Of a DNA stretch of 64,000 bases, positions 37,498 through 45,424 are shown one piece after another; positions within the stretch are counted from its first letter, which is position 1; each line of letters opens with the position of its first letter. A model generated the notes under the pieces. It did no database searches. It saw nothing but the letters and a program-made list of their open reading frames with translations, and had not been told where the DNA came from. The translations under genes were made by a program, and so were the position numbers. Origin of the DNA: Coraliomargarita sp. (GTDB lineage Bacteria > Verrucomicrobiota > Verrucomicrobiia > Opitutales > Coraliomargaritaceae); the NCBI GenBank assembly GCA_965216325.1, contig OZ244160.1, forward strand, positions 1,280,001 through 1,344,000, written 5' to 3'.

Positions 37498-38244
37498 ATG
37501 AGACACCGCTTGAAAATCTGCTTCCTACTTTGCGCTGCACTCTTCAGTCAGGTCGCGAGCGCGAGCACACTCAGCCACACCGAGATTCTGGCCAAATGCG
37601 ATGCTGCCCGCGGAAATATGGAAGGCGTCGAGTGGGAAGTGAGCGTCAAAGAAGAATCCGTGGGCAAAAGTGACGAGCGCCGCATTCATGTTCAGGCAAA
37701 AGGCTTCGATATGGTCGCTGAGACCTTGGCACCACCGCGCCAGAAGCAGCACAAGTTGCTGCTCGTGAAAAATAATATGTGGTTCTATAAGCCCGGACTC
37801 AGCAAACCGGTCCCCGTTTCCCTGCGCCAAAAACTAACTGGCCAAGCTGCCAACGGAGATATTGCGTCGACCAACTACGCGAAGGACTACGAGATATTGA
37901 GCACCTCAGCGGCTGAGCACAACGGAGAAGCCTGCACTCTCTATGAGCTGAAAGCGACTAGTAAATCGGTCAGCTATGCACGCATCCACTACTGGGTCTC
38001 CAAGGAACGGCATGTTGGCCTACGCGCAGACTACTACAATGCATCCGGTAGCAAGCGCCTGAAGACTGCAACCATGCGTTACGAGAATGAAGTCGAGCTT
38101 GAGGGCCAACACCGCCCATTCATTTCCGAAATGGAGATTGCCGACACGGCAACCTCCGACACCGTCACACGCTTAAGCTTTTCCAAGCCAAAGCTCGGCA
38201 AGATCTCACCGCGGGCATTCAACCTGCAAGCGCTGACGCGTTAA
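37498..38244 (+). CDS. LolA-like periplasmic protein (outer membrane lipoprotein-sorting family)
   Basis: Signal peptide, NMWFYKP, RQKLTGQAANGDIA; context. Confidence 0.8.
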   Translation: MRHRLKICFLLCAALFSQVASASTLSHTEILAKCDAARGNMEGVEWEVSVKEESVGKSDERRIHVQAKGFDMVAETLAPPRQKQHKLLLVKNNMWFYKPGLSKPVPVSLRQKLTGQAANGDIASTNYAKDYEILSTSAAEHNGEACTLYELKATSKSVSYARIHYWVSKERHVGLRADYYNASGSKRLKTATMRYENEVELEGQHRPFISEMEIADTATSDTVTRLSFSKPKLGKISPRAFNLQALTR

Positions 38245-38270
38245 CAAACAACCAGACTGCAACCGACTAC

Positions 38271-39482
38271 ATGAAGCGACTTAGCCTACTGGCACTAATC
38301 GCCGCACATACAAGCGCATATAGCAACAATGCCCTACTAGACTGGTGGGATGAGCATGGCGACTTCACCATTCGCAACTTAAGCTCAGCATTCGCTCAGC
38401 AGCCAGCCGAAATCCCGCTCTATGAAGGCTTGGGATTTTTACTGGGCACCGAGAGTGACAACATCCTGAACCTTCCCGGCTACAGTCTCGTCAACGAATT
38501 TCGCCCCGAAGCCAGCATCAGCTACGAGCACGCCTTCTTGGAAGTGAAACCGCGCTTCGTCGCGCGCCGTGACTATTTTCGCGAAGGTGAATTCGATGGC
38601 AGCGAAGCCAGCGACGACGAATTCTATATCTATGAATGGGTCGCACAATTCTTCCTCACACCGGAGCTATCGATTTCTTATGGTCGTGAAGACCTGCAAT
38701 GGGGGCCCTCGTTCTTACTCTCACCCTCGAACCCCTTCGATAGTGACAACGGCCGTTCAGAACCGAAAGCCGAAGTGGATAGCGCTGATTACGCGAAAGT
38801 CATCTGGACACCAAACTTTAATTGGACGGTCTCAGCTATCGTCAATACCGATGACGGCCGTAAAGACTATCGTATCGATGACCGGCTCCGCCAAGACTTC
38901 CGCGACATCTATGCGCTCAAAGTCGACTACCTCTTTGAACGCGGCAACGCAGCGGTCATTGCCTCGACGACTGACAGCGCGGAAGACATAGATGAGCGAC
39001 TCGGTTATTACATCAGCTACAACCTTACGGATGCATGGATCGGCTACAGTGAAGGCAGCCTATCAAGCGAAGACGAAGAGCTCCTTCTTGGAGCCAGCTA
39101 CACCTTCCAGAGCGGCCTGAGCGTTGCTGCGGAATATTTCTACAATTCCAGTGGAATCGATGATGATATACCCGAAACTGTTTTTGGACTGATCGATCTG
39201 GGCGATTACCTCACCTCCTTGCCAAATCGCGAAACGTTCTTCCGTGAGCATTACGCGCTGCTGCAGATCTACCAAAACGACGTGTATCGAAGCTTAGATC
39301 TGCTCCTGCGTTATACGCACAATATTGACGACAAATCGAACAGCTTGCTCGGCCATGCCGAATACGACCTAAACGATTACGTTCAATTATTCACCTCTGC
39401 GACTCTGAATAGCAACGGAGGAGGTGAACTCGATAGCCTGAGAGAATACTGGGTGCAGATCGGCGTTGAATTCAGCTACTAG
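38271..39482 (+). CDS. Putative outer-membrane beta-barrel protein
   Basis: Signal peptide, alternating beta strands, C-terminal VQIGVEFSY. Confidence 0.7.
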   Translation: MKRLSLLALIAAHTSAYSNNALLDWWDEHGDFTIRNLSSAFAQQPAEIPLYEGLGFLLGTESDNILNLPGYSLVNEFRPEASISYEHAFLEVKPRFVARRDYFREGEFDGSEASDDEFYIYEWVAQFFLTPELSISYGREDLQWGPSFLLSPSNPFDSDNGRSEPKAEVDSADYAKVIWTPNFNWTVSAIVNTDDGRKDYRIDDRLRQDFRDIYALKVDYLFERGNAAVIASTTDSAEDIDERLGYYISYNLTDAWIGYSEGSLSSEDEELLLGASYTFQSGLSVAAEYFYNSSGIDDDIPETVFGLIDLGDYLTSLPNRETFFREHYALLQIYQNDVYRSLDLLLRYTHNIDDKSNSLLGHAEYDLNDYVQLFTSATLNSNGGGELDSLREYWVQIGVEFSY

Positions 39483-39560
39483 GGCACGAATCACCAGCTG
39501 TCAAATTGTAGATGACATGGGCGTTTATCAGGAGCACGGAAGTGCTATGATGATAAACTT

Positions 39561-40649
39561 ATGCAAAACCCCACATCATCTACACGGACAACTAAGAACG
39601 CACTGGGCACAGTAATCAAGCTTGGCATTGACGTGCATGCGAGCACCTACGTGGTGGTCATGAAGATCGATAGCAGCGCCCCTTCACGCGCGAAGCGCAT
39701 GAAGCCTGATATCTTCCTTCGATGGATTAAGCAGCTGAGCACTCAGTGCGAGCAGTTGCAAAGTTGCTACGAGGCCGGTCCTTTTGGTTACAGCCTGCAC
39801 CGCAAGCTCAAGGCGATGGGCGTGAACAACCACGTAATCCGCCCGATCAACTGGGACACTCATGGTAAGAAGGTAAAGACCGACGCGCGTGATGCGTTGC
39901 AAATGGTCTTGAGTCTGGACGGCTATCTGCGGGGCAATGACCGCAGCTTCAGTGTCGTGCGTGTGCCCAGCGAGCAAGAAGAGCGTCACCGCAGCCTAAC
40001 CCGGCAGCGTGAAAGCTTCGTCAAAGAACGTGGCCGTGCGGCCAAGCGTGGTAAGAGTCTGGGACTGTATTACGATCAACCCTTACCCAGCGGCTGGTGG
40101 AAGCCGCGCAAATGGATGCAGCTACTCGAACAGCTCGACGATTTTTTGATCAGCCTGCTGGAGCCACTGCGGTTAAACTGCCTGCACTTTAGCGAGCTAA
40201 TCAGCAACATCGAAGAACGTATCGAAGCGCTCGAGCCGGAACGGGTGCTGCCTAAAGGCATGGGGGTGGTCCTCTATGAACAGATCGAACGTGAGGTCTG
40301 CAACTGGAAGCGATTCAACAACCGCAAGGCGGTCAGTTCCTTTACCGGACTGTGCCCAAGCGAAGACACTAGTGCAAATCGGCGTTTCCAGGGCTCGATC
40401 AACAAACACGGCAGTCCCCGCCTGCGGCATATGCTACAAGAGTGCGCCTGGTTATTGATCCGGTGGAATCCCGGCTACAGTGGGGTGCGTAAATGGCAGG
40501 CCAAGCTCAGCGACGAGACCACCAGTAAGGCGACCCGCAAGAAAATTGCCGTGGCCATCGCCCGGCAGTTCGCCGTGGACTGGTGGCGCATACGCACTGG
40601 CCAATGCAGTCTCGAAGACTTCGGACTGATAAGCAGACAAAACCCATAA
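39561..40649 (+). CDS. IS110-family recombinase
   Basis: DEDD domain (GIDVH, YEAG, KTDARDA) and GLCPSEDTS..GSINKHG. Confidence 0.93.
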   Translation: MQNPTSSTRTTKNALGTVIKLGIDVHASTYVVVMKIDSSAPSRAKRMKPDIFLRWIKQLSTQCEQLQSCYEAGPFGYSLHRKLKAMGVNNHVIRPINWDTHGKKVKTDARDALQMVLSLDGYLRGNDRSFSVVRVPSEQEERHRSLTRQRESFVKERGRAAKRGKSLGLYYDQPLPSGWWKPRKWMQLLEQLDDFLISLLEPLRLNCLHFSELISNIEERIEALEPERVLPKGMGVVLYEQIEREVCNWKRFNNRKAVSSFTGLCPSEDTSANRRFQGSINKHGSPRLRHMLQECAWLLIRWNPGYSGVRKWQAKLSDETTSKATRKKIAVAIARQFAVDWWRIRTGQCSLEDFGLISRQNP

Positions 40650-40699
40650 GTCCGAACCAACGCTAAAGGCCTTCACCCTCTGATTTTAACGTTCTTTTG

Positions 40700-40920
40700 C
40701 AGTTTTCCTTTGTGCGGAGTGAGTCTGACCAAGCCCCTGTTGCCAACACAACGATTTTGTAGAATAGGCCACTTCGCCACCAAGCTTTTGAATGACCCAA
40801 TGGATAGGTCATAGTGTGCTCTTCTGAGAAACACTCAGAAACACGGATAGCAGGTTATCCCGGATCATCGAAACTCCGAGGCCATGCGCGGTGGACGCTC
40901 AAAGACGATTGCAATCAAAA
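40700..40920 (+). ncRNA. Candidate bridge/seek RNA
   Basis: Non-coding IS end with hairpins (ATGACC/GGTCAT, TCTGAG/CTCAGA) and a 9-nt complement of the insertion flank; boundaries approximate. Confidence 0.55.
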
Positions 40921-40983
40921 CAAACCACTTATCTTATGTAAAAACACTCACACGCTTCTACACTCTTGACAGAAACGAACATA

Positions 40984-41227
40984 GCAGGGGCTTTTCAAGC
41001 GAAGCCCGCAAGACGCTAATTGGCCACGAATACCACTTTGGTAAAGGTTCGACCTGGATTCGGGCTTTAGGGACGACAGTCTCTAGCGGTCCGAGAAAAT
41101 AACTACGTTCGGACGCTTGTGGGTATGTGCCCCTACCAAAACCGCCAAACCTTCTTCAAAACAGAAAACGGACTAAACTCCACCATTCAGCCTGAGCTTC
41201 TGATCGAAGGCAAACGAAGCCCCTACG
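40984..41227. repeat. Degenerate REP cluster (IS110 target)
   Basis: GCAGGGGCTT..GCGAAGCCC at 40984, partner GAAGCCCCTAC near 41216-41226, inner REPIN 41067-41137. Confidence 0.6.
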
Positions 41228-41290
41228 CCTGCAACTCAAACGCTAACTGAGAGGCTTTCAAACAGACAAAGATCTCAATAAAGTTGAGAT

Positions 41291-43204
41291 ATCGAGTAGC
41301 CGGGAGCGGTTGCCTGCTCCAAGCTCTCACACCACCGGACGTACGGTTCACGTATCACGGCGGTTCCGAAGAAGGATTTCGGCTCTCATCAATTCGAGCA
41401 AATCATAGACAGATAGGAGCTTCATTTGCGTGAAGGCTTTGCGTGGGAGGGCTTGGTTCATGTGAGAGGCTCCGCTGTTAAACCACGCCCCGCGTCCGTT
41501 GTAGCTGCTTTTGCGGGCACATTCGGGGCTGAGCCCAAGCTGCACCAGCTTCCTGTAGCGGGTGTGGGGACGTTTCCACTGTCGCCAGAGGATGCACCGC
41601 AAGCGATGTCGCAACCATTCGTCCAGTTCCCCGGCGAAGGTTTTCGTCTGACTCAGGCGGAAGTAGTTCGTCCAGCCGCGTAGCACTGGATTGAGCGTCT
41701 CAGCGATGAAGCGGCGCAGGTTGCGCCCGCGCCCTTTGCGGCAGAGTTTCCGCAGCTTGGACTTCATCTTTTGAGTCGTCTGTTTGGGCACGCGAATGCG
41801 GCTATGCTTGCCCCCAGTGAAGCTGTAGCCGAGGAAGATCCGGCGGCTCGGACGATCCACCGCGCTTTTGAGGTGGTTGACCTTCAGCTTCAGTTTGGTC
41901 TCCAAATAGTTCGTGATCGAAGCGAGCACACGCTCGCCGCTGCGCTGCGTGGCGACGTAAATGTTACAGTCGTCCGCGTAGCGGCAGAAGCTATGGCCGC
42001 GCTTCTCCAGTTCCTTATCCAGATCGTCCAACATGATGTTGGACAGCAGTGGAGAGAGCGGCCCACCCTGAGGCGTGCCTTTCTCCATGGGTTGAACCAG
42101 CCCGCCGATCATCACTCCAGCTTTAAGCCAGGAGCGGATCAGTTTGAGCATGGCTTTGTCTTTCACATGACGGCGCACCCGCGCCATCAGCAGGTCGTGG
42201 TTCACTTCGTCGAAGAAGGCCTTCAAGTCCATGTCCACGACCCAGTTCTTGCCTTCGTGCTGATACTTTTGCGCCTGTTCGACCGCTTGTCCTGCGCTGC
42301 GTCCGGGGCGGAACCCGTAGCTGTGTTCGCTGAACAGGGGGTCGAAGATCGGGCTGAGTATCTGCAAGGCCGCTTGTTGCAGCACACGGTCAACGATCGT
42401 GGGAACGCCCAGCTTGCGGGTGCCCCCGCCCGGCTTTTTGATCTCCAGACGCAGCACTGCCGGGGGACGATACCTCCCGGTCAGCAACTGCGATTCGATC
42501 TGCTCCCAGTGCGCATTTAGATACGCCAGGCTGGCTTCCATGTCGCGCTCGTCGATGCCCGCTCTGCCGCCGTTGCGGCGCACTTTCTTCCACGCGGCTT
42601 TGATATTGCCGCGCTCGGTCACCTGTCGAATCAGGTCGTATTGGTGAGCAACTCGGTTCTCCAAGGCCGATGGCGCGCTTGATGCGCCCGCATGGACTCG
42701 CCCCAGATGCCGTCCGGTTCCTTCCACGCGGGTCTGACGGGTGGTGCCGCCAGCTTCTGCTTCCCTGCTCTCGCTCATGGTCTCAGTCCTTGTTGTCGTT
42801 CTTCGGTTCGATCCTTCGCCCGCGACCTGTGCAGGCTACTATGATCTCGGCTGACTTCTCTAAACACATCCCAGTGCCTCGCGACACTGGTAGCCAGTAG
42901 CATGTTCAGAGACCTCCCCGGGTAATGCGCACTTACCGTCACACTTATGCCTGCCGCATGTACGCCTGCGCTTTCCGGGCAAGTTTCGGACTTTGAAGTT
43001 CTGTGCCTCCTCATCCAACGCAAACGCCTCTTATGCGATTTCTGTTCGTCAGGCCAGTGCTTTGCCATAGGCTTCCTTCCCACGAACACCTCGCGATGCC
43101 GCAGTTGCCCTTCGGCTAACTCTTCCCCTTGCCGGGCGAGTAACAGACTTTCATCAATTTCCATTAATAATCACTGTCGAGTAAGTGCGCCCTGCCGGGC
43201 GCAC
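41291..43204 (-). mobile_element. Group II intron, class IIC
   Basis: 5' GTGCGCCCGGC; short domain V GAACCGCCG..CCGTACGTCCGGTGGT; 3' CTACTCGAT; inserted just after a terminator hairpin. Confidence 0.92.
41348..42778 (-). CDS. ltrA: Group II intron reverse transcriptase/maturase (no endonuclease domain)
   Basis: SYGFRPGRS, GTPQGGPLSPLL, RYADD, GWTNYF. Confidence 0.95.
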   Translation of the reverse strand: MSESREAEAGGTTRQTRVEGTGRHLGRVHAGASSAPSALENRVAHQYDLIRQVTERGNIKAAWKKVRRNGGRAGIDERDMEASLAYLNAHWEQIESQLLTGRYRPPAVLRLEIKKPGGGTRKLGVPTIVDRVLQQAALQILSPIFDPLFSEHSYGFRPGRSAGQAVEQAQKYQHEGKNWVVDMDLKAFFDEVNHDLLMARVRRHVKDKAMLKLIRSWLKAGVMIGGLVQPMEKGTPQGGPLSPLLSNIMLDDLDKELEKRGHSFCRYADDCNIYVATQRSGERVLASITNYLETKLKLKVNHLKSAVDRPSRRIFLGYSFTGGKHSRIRVPKQTTQKMKSKLRKLCRKGRGRNLRRFIAETLNPVLRGWTNYFRLSQTKTFAGELDEWLRHRLRCILWRQWKRPHTRYRKLVQLGLSPECARKSSYNGRGAWFNSGASHMNQALPRKAFTQMKLLSVYDLLELMRAEILLRNRRDT

Positions 43205-43206
43205 AC

Positions 43207-43240
43207 AAAAAGGCCCTCCAGTGAAAACTGGAGGGCCTTT
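43207..43240 (-). terminator. Terminator of the porin gene and intron target hairpin
   Basis: AAAGGCCCTCCAG..CTGGAGGGCCTTT. Confidence 0.9.
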
Positions 43241-43264
43241 GATCAGAATATAAAAAGAGCTATC

Positions 43265-44503
43265 TTAGAAAGAGAAGATCAGCTCAACAGCACCGATGAG
43301 TTCATCATACTCTGCATCACCACCACCGGTCAGCACACCACCCGCATCAGCACCGAGATCGCCGTCGCCTTCAGCATAGCTTACTTCAAGCACAAGCAGC
43401 AGGTTATCAGTGAATGCGTAGTTGTGGGCCAGTGTGAACTTAAGCATGTCTGCCTCGATGTCAGCGTCAGCTGAGATTGGTGTGCTTACGTCACCTTCAA
43501 TCTCGTAATCAACATAGCTGATACGACCAGTCACAGATGCCTTCTCGCTGTATGCCCAGTTGGCCATGATCAGACCACCAAGGGAATCAGTTTCGATGTC
43601 AGCAAGAACACCAGAAACCCCTGGCGCATCTGTAGTGTCATCCCACTCATTGTTGCCGTAGAAGAATTCTGCAGCAAAGAACCATGCACCCATTTCATAA
43701 GTAACATAGGTGTTGAAGGTGTAGCTGGTTGTGTCACCGGTATCGATTGCGTCACCAGAGAGACCATCACCGTCTTCATAAGCGAGGCCAACGAACCATG
43801 TGAAGTCTTCAGTTACGTTCCAAGCACCTGCAAGTTCAGCGCCCCAACCGCCACCGTCGACGGACTCGGAACCACCAAGACGGCTGTCGTAGTTTTTGTC
43901 ACCGTCAAGTAGCGAGGCACCAAAGAAGAACTCGTCGCTCTCATATGTGTATTTTACACCTTGAGAGTAGTTTGCGCCAATCGGGAAGATTGTGCCAGTC
44001 AACGCTGCGATATCCTCACCGCCAAGGTCATCAGGAAGGAAGCCAAGACCAAGGTCAAGAAGCTCAGAACCTGCAAAAGGAAGCGAATATGCAGTAGAGT
44101 ATTGGTAAAGACCTGTTGGCTCGAAAGCTTCGAAACCAAGCATCGATGCGAAGCGACCAGCTGTGATCGCACTGCCACCGTCGAAGTGGTAAGTCGCGAA
44201 TGCCTCTTCTACTTCAAGGTCATCACCAGCTTCTTCATATTCAAGATCGATTTGAGCAGTTACCTTGTCGAAGTCGAACAACCAGCTGATTTCAACCTGA
44301 TCTACAGCGAAACTGTTGTCGGAGAAGTCTTCATCAAAGACGTTACCAACGCCGTCAACGTCAGCTTCAGCACTGCCGTCGGCGTGAACGTAGGACATAT
44401 CGATAAAGCCCTCGAAGGAAAGGAAGTCATTGATGACGATCTCACCATACGAAAGGCTGCAAGCCGCAAATGCTGCGGATGTAAGCGCAAGTTTCTTATT
44501 CAT
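43265..44503 (-). CDS. Outer-membrane porin-like beta-barrel
   Basis: Signal peptide, acidic beta-rich sequence, C-terminal ELIFSF. Confidence 0.8.
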   Translation of the reverse strand: MNKKLALTSAAFAACSLSYGEIVINDFLSFEGFIDMSYVHADGSAEADVDGVGNVFDEDFSDNSFAVDQVEISWLFDFDKVTAQIDLEYEEAGDDLEVEEAFATYHFDGGSAITAGRFASMLGFEAFEPTGLYQYSTAYSLPFAGSELLDLGLGFLPDDLGGEDIAALTGTIFPIGANYSQGVKYTYESDEFFFGASLLDGDKNYDSRLGGSESVDGGGWGAELAGAWNVTEDFTWFVGLAYEDGDGLSGDAIDTGDTTSYTFNTYVTYEMGAWFFAAEFFYGNNEWDDTTDAPGVSGVLADIETDSLGGLIMANWAYSEKASVTGRISYVDYEIEGDVSTPISADADIEADMLKFTLAHNYAFTDNLLLVLEVSYAEGDGDLGADAGGVLTGGGDAEYDELIGAVELIFSF

Positions 44504-44719
44504 TAGTGTAGTGTTCTTTGGTTTGTTTGTCGTGAACCCTCATAAATGAGAAATTCAACGAGCAAAATCTGCCCCAAAAACGTTAGAAAGTGAAGCTTTT
44601 TTTTATGAATCAAACACCTCAAAAAAGAGACACCTAGACACCTCATAAAGCTGTCACGAATAAGGCCGCCCAGCTCAATTAACTAAGCATGAGGCAGGCA
44701 GTGGCTTCCCCTCACCAAC

Positions 44720-45424
44720 TTAGGCATACACAATGCAAGCGCACTGATCGCAGAAGTGAGGCTCCCCTGAATCGAGCGCCTCTCGAGAGACCTCATTCGA
44801 CACGCGCAAATGGCAACGCGCACAAACGTGCGCTTCAATCCTTGCGACATACGGTGCCCGCTTCACCAATTTACGCACACGATCATAGTGCTCGATGTAG
44901 GACTCTTGAATGCCTTCGCGTGACGCAGCCAGCGCTGCCTTGGCGTCATCAATCGAGTCTTTAAGATTCTGCTCTTTCTGAGCCAAGAGCTCAATGTGAC
45001 GACGCTGCTCCTGAATACGGAGCTCAATCTCGGCCTTATCGGCATTGAACTGCTCGGTGACTTCGTCGATTTCGAGCATCAGCTCGATTTCCTGCTCCTC
45101 GAGTGTCGAAATTTCAGTCTCAGTCTGCTCAATCTGCTGAGTCATCGCCCGATACTCGTCGTTTTTCTTAATTTCGAGCTGCTGGGTGCGAAATTTGGCC
45201 ACGGCGGCCTCTTTGGCCTTCACCTCTGTGTCGAGTTCACTGCGCTGCACCTCTTTTTCCTTCAGTGTCTGGCGAGCGGCCTCAACATTGGCCTCTTCCG
45301 CTGCGATCTTGCTTTCGATTAAGGCGCGCTCTTTGGGAATACGCGTGAGCTCTTGCTCGATTTTTTGCAGCGAAGTGTCGCGATCTTGAACGATTAGGAG
45401 CTTTTCGATTTGCGGGTCAGGCAT
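44720..45424 (-). CDS. Coiled-coil + C4 zinc-ribbon protein (DUF164-like)
   Basis: Long coiled coil, CARCH..CDQC. Confidence 0.85.
   Translation of the reverse strand: MPDPQIEKLLIVQDRDTSLQKIEQELTRIPKERALIESKIAAEEANVEAARQTLKEKEVQRSELDTEVKAKEAAVAKFRTQQLEIKKNDEYRAMTQQIEQTETEISTLEEQEIELMLEIDEVTEQFNADKAEIELRIQEQRRHIELLAQKEQNLKDSIDDAKAALAASREGIQESYIEHYDRVRKLVKRAPYVARIEAHVCARCHLRVSNEVSREALDSGEPHFCDQCACIVYA

Follow-up and report, generated by a model that had tools for sequence, protein, structure and literature searches.

An IS1111-type insertion sequence of Coraliomargarita sp. with a conserved non-coding RNA whose guide-like segments match its REP target

The window analyzed here is a stretch of 64,000 nucleotides (nt) from the genome of Coraliomargarita sp. 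(Verrucomicrobiota; contig OZ244160.1, positions 1,280,001 to 1,344,000), and the subject of this work is an insertion sequence (IS) of the IS110/IS1111 type located in it, together with the RNA that appears to be encoded at its 3' end (Table 1; all coordinates are those of the window unless another sequence is named). The element consists of a left end of 51 nt before the ATG (39510-39560), a single transposase/recombinase gene (tnp), and a right end of 336 nt after the stop codon (40650-40985), which contains a long non-coding region (NCR) and borders on a repetitive extragenic palindromic (REP) sequence of the host. A first-pass annotation of the same DNA, made from the letters alone, had proposed an IS110/IS1111-type element with a flank-complementary guide RNA 3' of the open reading frame (ORF), and this proposal is borne out by the Pfam domains and the modelled fold of the protein, by the element's ends, and by the covarying RNA described below. 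The same annotation had placed the element at 39496-40993; the sequence common to the genomic copies starts at 39508-39510, and the boundaries have been corrected to those of Table 1.

The 362-aa ORF matches two Pfam families, PF02371 with 52.9 bits (cutoff 21.3) and PF01548 with 29.2 bits (cutoff 29.0). In an alignment of 11 homologues, residues D24, E71, D108, D111, and S271 are invariant, and the recombinase contains the motif G263-L264-C265-P266-SEDT-S271 (GLCP-x4-S). When the protein was searched by sequence against the PDB, no match was obtained at E 0.001 and, at E up to 1, only an unrelated ribosomal protein appeared (E 0.8), so that a search by fold was needed. For the AlphaFold model of the recombinase (predicted local distance difference test, pLDDT, 83.4), the top ten Foldseek matches were chains of the bridge recombinase complexes of IS621 (8wt9, 8wt6) and ISCro4 (9t56), with E values of 2e-10 to 1e-8, target-normalised template modelling (TM) scores of 0.58-0.67, and a structure-based identity of 16-19%. 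Judged by its domains and by this predicted fold, the ORF product is a divergent DEDD recombinase of the IS110 family. The term divergent had already been used in the first-pass annotation, and it suits the low identity to IS621 and ISCro4, the PDB sequence search, and the NCBIfam score discussed below.

The extent of the element was obtained from an alignment of its nine copies in the genome, whose flanks diverge outside 39510-40985. Eight copies are identical over 1478 nt and the ninth (L009) has one base change, C to A at the equivalent of window position 40842, which is the sole difference among the nine. This near-identity argues that the element is active, or recently was. The sequence common to the copies extends on the left from GTAG/ATGACATGG (GAAG in L009) and on the right to CATAGCAG/GGGCTT; the two bases preceding the left AG are GT in eight copies and GA in L009, and the bases farther to the left of the junction are unrelated between the nine copies. 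A second AG is found at the right junction (40986-40987), and only this dinucleotide is repeated at both junctions, with no other duplication. The repeat had previously been read as AGC; the AGC at 39496-39498 is part of the flank of one site. Similarly, CTGTCAA (39498-39504) was considered as the left inverted repeat and rejected, being flank sequence present at this site only. The true inverted repeats are subterminal; a manual alignment of the two gives 14 matches over 18 positions and an indel of 2 nt, and the right one does contain the TTGACA that the first-pass annotation had seen there. Homologues have the same arrangement of subterminal repeats and extensions, and in most of them CTTGAC is kept ~13-16 nt before the end. 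The element therefore presents several features of the IS1111 group, namely subterminal repeats, a 7-bp left extension, a long NCR downstream of tnp, and a sequence-specific target. The contigs of four DNA runs (X1-X4), when compared with 39300-41200, showed no joints that would represent an empty site or a circle junction; these contigs branch at 39506, 39508, 39510, and 40990 to 40994, in agreement with the flanks of the copies.

Table 1. Position of the insertion sequence, its gene, the predicted RNA with its putative guides, and the target in the window.
Feature	Coordinates	Strand	Remarks
Insertion sequence AGATGAC...CATAGC, IS1111 convention	39510-40985	+	1476 bp; AG core counted once
Core dinucleotide AG, left junction	39510-39511	+	Before ATGACAT in 9/9 copies
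Left subterminal inverted repeat ATGGGCGTTTATCAGGAG	39517-39534	+	After 7-nt terminal extension AGATGAC (39510-39516)
Transposase/recombinase gene (tnp), 362 aa	39561-40649	+	DEDD RuvC-like N-terminal and Transposase_20 C-terminal domains
Bridge/seekRNA-like non-coding RNA, ~189 nt	40712-40900	+	RNAalifold, covariance model; co-oriented downstream of the gene
RNA closing stem	40712-16 / 40896-900	+	
Module 1 outer stem	40723-27 / 40765-69	+	
Right target guide (RTG; 'T' segment) AAGCCCCT	40731-40738	+	Complements top strand AG+GGGCTT; 5' side of first loop
Module 1 inner hairpin	40739-42 / 40749-52	+	
Left target guide (LTG; 'B' segment) TTTTGTAG	40755-40762	+	Equals top strand, left target + core; 3' side of first loop
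Module 2 closing stem	40777-81 / 40890-94	+	
Candidate right donor guide (RDG) GTCAT	40808-40812	+	Complements ATGAC of left end (39512-16); tentative
Module 2 inner hairpin	40815-22 / 40837-45	+	
Left donor guide (LDG) ATAGCAG	40847-40853	+	Identical to last bases of right end + core (40981-40987)
Module 2 3' hairpin	40861-64 / 40875-78	+	
Right subterminal inverted repeat	40963-40982	+	Holds TTGACA (40966-40971); then 3-nt extension AGC (40983-40985)
Core AG + REP hairpin target GGGCTTTTCAAGCGAAGCCCGC	40986-41009	+	Host sequence outside the IS; right flanks REP-like in 9/9 copies

Relatives of the element have been found in three collections. Twenty loci come from a species-representative genome collection, all of them labelled as Verrucomicrobiota save one Acidobacteriota metagenome-assembled genome (MAG; Candidatus Sulfotelmatobacter) and one unclassified bacterium; further matches occur in 7 genomes among 400 sampled in the phylum; and at least 585 stretches were confirmed in a metagenome collection, the best 80 of which were analyzed. 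These relatives include genomes of Opitutales, Puniceicoccaceae, and others, and contigs of soil and aquatic metagenomes. In the same Coraliomargarita genome there is also a diverged single-copy member of the family (L010, G000:C1:2769008-2772060, with the element at ~461-2007 and an ORF of 384 aa at 517-1671).

When the relatives are aligned, the region after the stop codon shows conserved blocks. Folding of a MAFFT alignment of 16 non-redundant sequences by RNAalifold gave 30 base pairs, 26 of them with compensatory changes. From this alignment fold a covariance model (R1) was built and searched against 99 sources, comprising the 80 metagenome loci, 13 of the 20 species-representative loci, 5 loci of the phylum sample, and the locus of the window (L001); seven near-duplicates from two Synoicihabitans MAGs were left out. 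R1 matches 87 of the 99 sources, always co-oriented with tnp and downstream of it, and nine of the ten metagenome loci lacking a match have <185 nt after the gene. In the resulting alignment of 87 rows, 93.0% of the cells are paired versus 71.1% in shuffles, and changes on both sides of the pair occur in 28 of the 30 pairs, values reached by none of 500 shuffles; sliding the partners by 1-3 columns lowers the pairing to 29-55%. This larger alignment was fitted to R1 and favours the structure for that reason, although the independent MAFFT/RNAalifold result agrees with it. Within its own genome, R1 has ten matches, corresponding to the nine copies and L010. On such comparative evidence, the 3' region is predicted to encode a conserved RNA of ~190 nt with two internal-loop modules. 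The base change of L009 mentioned above breaks the pair of 40842 with 40818, in the inner hairpin of the second module.

The first internal loop contains the segments that match the target. In it, AAGCCCCT lies 5' of TTTTGTAG (40755-62), and both overlap at AG. As the first-pass annotation had reported, reverse complementing CAGGGGCTT (40985-40993) gives exactly AAGCCCCTG (40731-40739), which was confirmed in the sequence. The extension of this match to 11 nt with one G.U pair is likewise present, but the guide itself is counted as only 8 nt (AAGCCCCT against AG+GGGCTT), because the pairing of positions 9-11 involves the last bases of the element itself; G still follows the guide in relatives whose right end is ATAGG-AG, so these positions are not a conserved feature. 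The left target guide had been left unplaced, and TTTTGTAG now fills that role. Part of it had been noticed under another name, since TTGTAGA, which is indeed located at 40757-40763, had been taken for an echo of the donor ends, and its TTGTAG is the left target guide. In the genome, the left flanks end in YYGTAG in eight of the nine copies and in ACGAAG in L009.

Taken alone, the 9-nt complement is only modestly unusual: when the mononucleotides of the 326-nt NCR were shuffled 2000 times and compared with a 30-nt junction window, 9 nt were reached in 50 cases; the weight of the evidence is therefore placed on covariation in the relatives. Right ends were located by each locus's own loop-2 heptamer, and 41 of the 87 loci had an exact match with at least 10 nt of flank. 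In 31 of these 41, the RTG is complementary to the core and its own right flank over at least 7 contiguous nt, while the same length is reached in 109 of 1434 mismatched pairs formed by guides and flanks of different guide classes (7.6%). The distinct guide ends fall into 27 classes, 18 of which reach 7 nt (manual count); examples are GACACCGCT with AGCGGTGTC, GGCCGACCT with AGGTCGGCC, and TTGACTCCT with AGGAGTCA. The single-copy relative L010 has a guide of its own, CTCCCCTCCT, and the flank to the right of this element reads AG GAGGGGAG, a match in 10 of 10 positions. In relatives, the counterpart of 40731-40738 thus changes with the right flank, which is the covariation that the first-pass annotation had named as a check of its proposal. 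On the left side, 27 of 69 loci show a match of at least 5 nt between the suffix of the LTG and the left flank (3.0% of controls), and 51 of 69 show one of at least 4 nt (13.9% of controls).

The second internal loop appears to contain the donor guides. The ATAGC at 40847-40851, which had been read earlier as an echo of a donor end, does match the right end and is part of the LDG. Homologues keep CGGATAGCAG in the RNA and CCATAGCAG at the right end; moreover, where the LDG is changed to ATAGGAG, ATATTAG, or ATATCAG, the right end of the same locus shows the same variant (7 loci). The 5' strand of this loop is GGTCATAG (40807-14), which holds GTCAT in a position analogous to that of the RTG in the first loop. 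The probable partner of GTCAT is the ATGAC at the left end, this being the weakest step of the model. Some relatives carry GTCATCT, which would reach the core too, and a few compensatory changes between RDG and left end are seen (GTTTT/AAAAC and GTCAC/GTGAC); because the covariation is weak overall, the assignment of the RDG is tentative. Another candidate, TCATC at 40866-70, lies in the loop of a covarying hairpin, is not conserved, and was rejected.

The weak covariation of the RDG with the left end could also be taken to mean that only the first module guides, the second one being a scaffold for protein binding, with the ends recognised by the recombinase through the subterminal repeats and the matches of ATAGCAG and GTCAT to the ends either incidental or needed for processing only. 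The ends and the second loop are highly conserved, so that few informative changes are available, and in ISEc11 a short seekRNA with only the target-matching segments has been reported to suffice, the role of the long RNA being left open in that account (PMC11187229). Such a division of labor is nevertheless unlikely in our judgment. The loop segment varies with the right end in the seven loci cited above, the internal-loop layout of the first loop is repeated in the second, whose structure is conserved, and donor-complementary loops in IS1111 members, including ISPa11, have been reported by Durrant et al. (PMC11208160).

Joined ends are found in one relative. The metagenome contig L106 (1829 nt) is circularly permuted, with a terminal overlap of 127 nt and a unit of 1702 bp that represents one member of the family. 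In it, the right and left ends are joined at CATAGC-AG-ATGGCAT with AG at the junction, as either an assembled minicircle or a tandem copy. If the ends of the window element were joined, they would read TTGACA, 17 nt, TGACAT (by eye), with a poor -10 box lacking A at position 2; at the junction of L106 the spacing differs and no -10 box was seen by eye.

The choice of genomic sites agrees with the guide. The right flank of all nine copies is a REP-like hairpin of the form GGGGCTT..loop..AAGCCC, the loops of which differ between copies, and two copies have an extra insert. All nine insertions carry AGGGGCTT, that is AG+GGGCTT, on the right side, and the site reads YYGT-AG-GGGCTT in eight copies and ACGA-AG-GGGCTT in L009. 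The REP consensus of the genome is GTAGGGGC(G/T)nnGCTTGCGnn GCCC, with 193 GTAGGGGC sites, and from this consensus together with the flanks of the copies it follows that the insertions are located inside the REP, between GTAG and GGGC. There are 194 hairpin-forming AGGGGC sites in the genome, 185 of which are unoccupied, and only 34 of the 185 have TT at the position specified by the guide, the other 151 having other bases. Since all nine insertions are at GGGGCTT, the element picks the REP subtype that its guide specifies. The intact, IS-free GTAGGGGCTT sites are also 34, of which 8 are TTGTAGGGGCTT, and these 34 paralogous REPs served as a proxy for the uninterrupted target. The extra inserts of L008 and L009 are related sequences of ~26-28 nt (CTTCGAGCATGAGCTCAGGCCGAATG and a variant) within the hairpin loop of the occupied REP, and may represent a nested small repeat.

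This preference for hairpins might also suggest that the recombinase itself reads the shape or sequence of the REP, in the manner of REP-associated or hairpin-recognising transposases, the complement to the flank being a by-product. The nine targets are all hairpins, the target of L010 is palindromic as well (CCCCTCC..AG..GGAGGGG), and REP targeting by IS110/IS1111 elements was known well before guide RNAs, to judge from the titles of cited references. However, the copies use only the GGGGCTT subtype even though most free REP-like hairpins differ there, as counted above, and relatives built almost identically have their insertions in unrelated sequences, each matching the relative's own guide, so that direct recognition of the REP is very improbable. 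The complement could also be due to chance, or be a piece of a REP picked up by the element, since 2.5% of shuffles attain such a match and the 3' arm of the REP stem likewise reads AAGCCC. Such an origin is barely credible, because the place of the segment within a conserved RNA fold is fixed, the segment and the flank change together in 27 guide classes unlike this REP, and no REP partner arm lies beside it.

Taking these data together, we favor, with a probability of roughly 90%, that the element is an IS of the IS1111 group that moves by RNA-guided site-specific recombination into one REP hairpin subtype of its host. The steps of such movement can be proposed by analogy with ISEc11, ISPa11, and IS621 (PMC11187229, PMC11208160). 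The element would be excised as a circle joining CATAGC-AG-ATGACAT, and the RNA would be co-transcribed with tnp, bound by the recombinase, and used to bridge the circle junction and the REP target. In the first loop, AAGCCCCT would pair with the core and the right target on their top strand (AG GGGCTT), and TTTTGTAG, being equal to the top strand ..TTGT AG, could pair with the bottom strand. Strand exchange would then take place at the AG core by means of the conserved serine S271. From the properties of ISEc11 and IS621 as described, we also infer that the system may be reprogrammable, as the first-pass annotation had supposed.

Several observations weigh against this interpretation. Regarding the protein, its score for NCBIfam NF033542 (transpos_IS110, IS110 family RNA-guided transposase) is 137.8 bits, below the cutoff of 140; this match has an E value of 4.7e-40 and covers profile positions 2-337 of 343, so that the shortfall is a marginal miss of the naming threshold, with no feature missing. 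The catalytic motif is S-A instead of the usual S/T-G. In the 11 homologues, the residue after S271 is A in the window element and L011, D in L012, and G in the other eight, and an occasional TA in the C-terminal motif is mentioned in PMC11187229. Regarding the RNA, the 3' NCR is not more stable than its shuffles (minimum free energy, MFE, z = +0.90, with 80 of 100 shuffles folding at least as well), for which reason the single-sequence fold was dropped in favor of the alignment fold; in addition, a search of Rfam 15 over 38000-45000 with E up to 1 gave no match in the NCR. Regarding the target guides, the exact suffix match of the LTG is short (3 nt in L009, ACGAAG, and 4 to 7 nt in the other eight copies), and the complement of the RTG is under 7 nt in ten of the 41 loci, namely L017, L018, L022, L025, L052, L064, L073, L096, L106, and L113, among which L106 is the circle or tandem junction described above. 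Related loci are not independent either, and the covariation counts therefore overstate the number of independent events. Regarding the donor side, the RDG of the window element does not cover the core, being followed by AG instead of CT, and in loci with variant left ends it pairs on average with its own end at 3.8 of 5 positions versus 3.7 of 5 for the consensus end. Finally, a consensus scan of 39400-41100 found no sigma-70-like promoters.

Comparison with known systems shows the element to be of a kind already described. In members of the IS1111 group, a long NCR is present downstream of tnp, and a seekRNA derived from it co-purifies with the transposase, as reported by Siddiquee et al. 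(PMC11187229). According to the same source, the seekRNA segment complementary to the top strand lies 5' of the one for the bottom strand, the two overlap at the insertion point, ISPa11 targets REPs, ISEc11 is reprogrammable, and a "required 7 bp extension" exists at the left end of IS1111 elements; both PMC11187229 and PMC11208160 describe terminal extensions that are short, 7 bp at the left, outside subterminal inverted repeats of 7-17 bp. For 93.0% of IS1111 elements, a bridge RNA in the right end has been predicted by Durrant et al. (PMC11208160), who present a model of two loops and four guides with the core within each pairing.

A close likeness is found with ISPa11, an IS1111 element of Pseudomonas aeruginosa that also has a REP hairpin as target and a long NCR downstream of tnp, whose NCR-derived seekRNA co-purifies with the transposase and has the same order of segments and overlap at the insertion point (PMC11187229), and which belongs to a set of six elements whose bridge RNA is predicted in PMC11208160. 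The host phylum and the sequences of REP and guides differ between both elements; besides, the window protein has 362 aa, compared with the 330-350 aa stated for IS1111 transposases, and S-A in place of S/T-G (PMC11187229). Another group is formed by ISEc11, ISKpn4, and ISPst6, with shown seekRNAs, which share with the window element the subterminal repeats, the 7-bp left extension, and the lack of target duplication, and for which a circular intermediate, a reprogrammable seekRNA and, in ISEc11, a junction promoter have been described (PMC11187229). The targets of these three are a linear 12-mer or attC sites, as described there, whereas that of the window element is a REP, and the junction promoter of its putative circle (TTGACA-17 nt-TGACAT) is a candidate read from the sequence. 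In IS621 and ISCro4, of the IS110 group, a bridge RNA of two internal loops is likewise present, and around a 2-nt core each loop pairs with the two strands (PMC11208160). According to the available descriptions, however, their RNA is located in the left end, upstream of the gene, with the guide order in each loop reversed relative to the window element, CT takes the place of AG as core, and the subterminal repeats are limited to 2-3 bp; in addition, all four of their guides include the core, which the candidate RDG of the window element skips (PMC11208160). Finally, ISPpu9 and ISPpu10, IS110 elements of Pseudomonas putida, are likewise multi-copy and located in REP sequences, and in ISPpu9 tnp is followed downstream by the gene of a small RNA (PMC12288879). 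The RNA from that gene, Ssr9, has been described as a separate module dispensable for transposition (PMC12288879), whereas in the window element the downstream RNA carries the putative guides and is present in all nine copies.

With the exception of the core-skipping candidate RDG, all the tested features fit the description of IS1111 bridge/seekRNA elements in these sources, and the element is therefore assigned to this known kind. It is a new natural example of the RNA-guided bridge/seekRNA recombinases described in 2024. It is doubtful, in turn, that the window element and its relatives constitute a distinct, unnamed sub-lineage of IS1111-type bridge recombinases, jointly defined by a single closed RNA of ~190 nt, a fixed AG core, a long RTG (8-10 nt) with a short LTG (4-6 nt), an RDG skipping the core and, in this branch, the S-A catalytic motif. 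If that were the case, the 27 or more natural guide classes would be a ready panel of orthogonal specificities; and, if the asymmetry and the core-skipping RDG reflected a genuine divergence in mechanism from IS621 and ISEc11, the clade would shed light on the assembly of the IS1111-type synapse.

Two neighboring features complete the description of the locus. About 300 nt downstream of the IS there is a group II intron on the minus strand (41291-43100), with an ORF for a reverse transcriptase/maturase at 41348-42778 (RVT_1 + GIIM, minus strand), Rfam pieces of D1-D4 at 42811-43100, and a weak match to domain V/VI at 41291-41365 (30.6 bits, under the gathering score). Upstream, a 403-aa ORF on the plus strand (38271-39482) without Pfam match ends in ...GVEFSY, and the IS is located 27 nt past its stop codon; its N-terminal signal-like stretch and aromatic C-terminus suggest a predicted outer-membrane protein.

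As to its significance, the finding leaves the current understanding of the bridge/seekRNA mechanism unchanged. In this case, the boundaries, the core, the RNA fold, and three of the four guide segments have been fixed by comparative data alone, and Verrucomicrobiota are not among the hosts of the elements named in the available text of PMC11187229 and PMC11208160. For the annotation of the Coraliomargarita genome, it accounts for nine repeated elements of 1.5 kb and for their single REP subtype. Finally, the IS1111 branch is structurally less well characterised than IS621, and the 87 aligned RNAs, with their matched flanks, are a resource for the study of guide length, core rules, and donor recognition in this branch.

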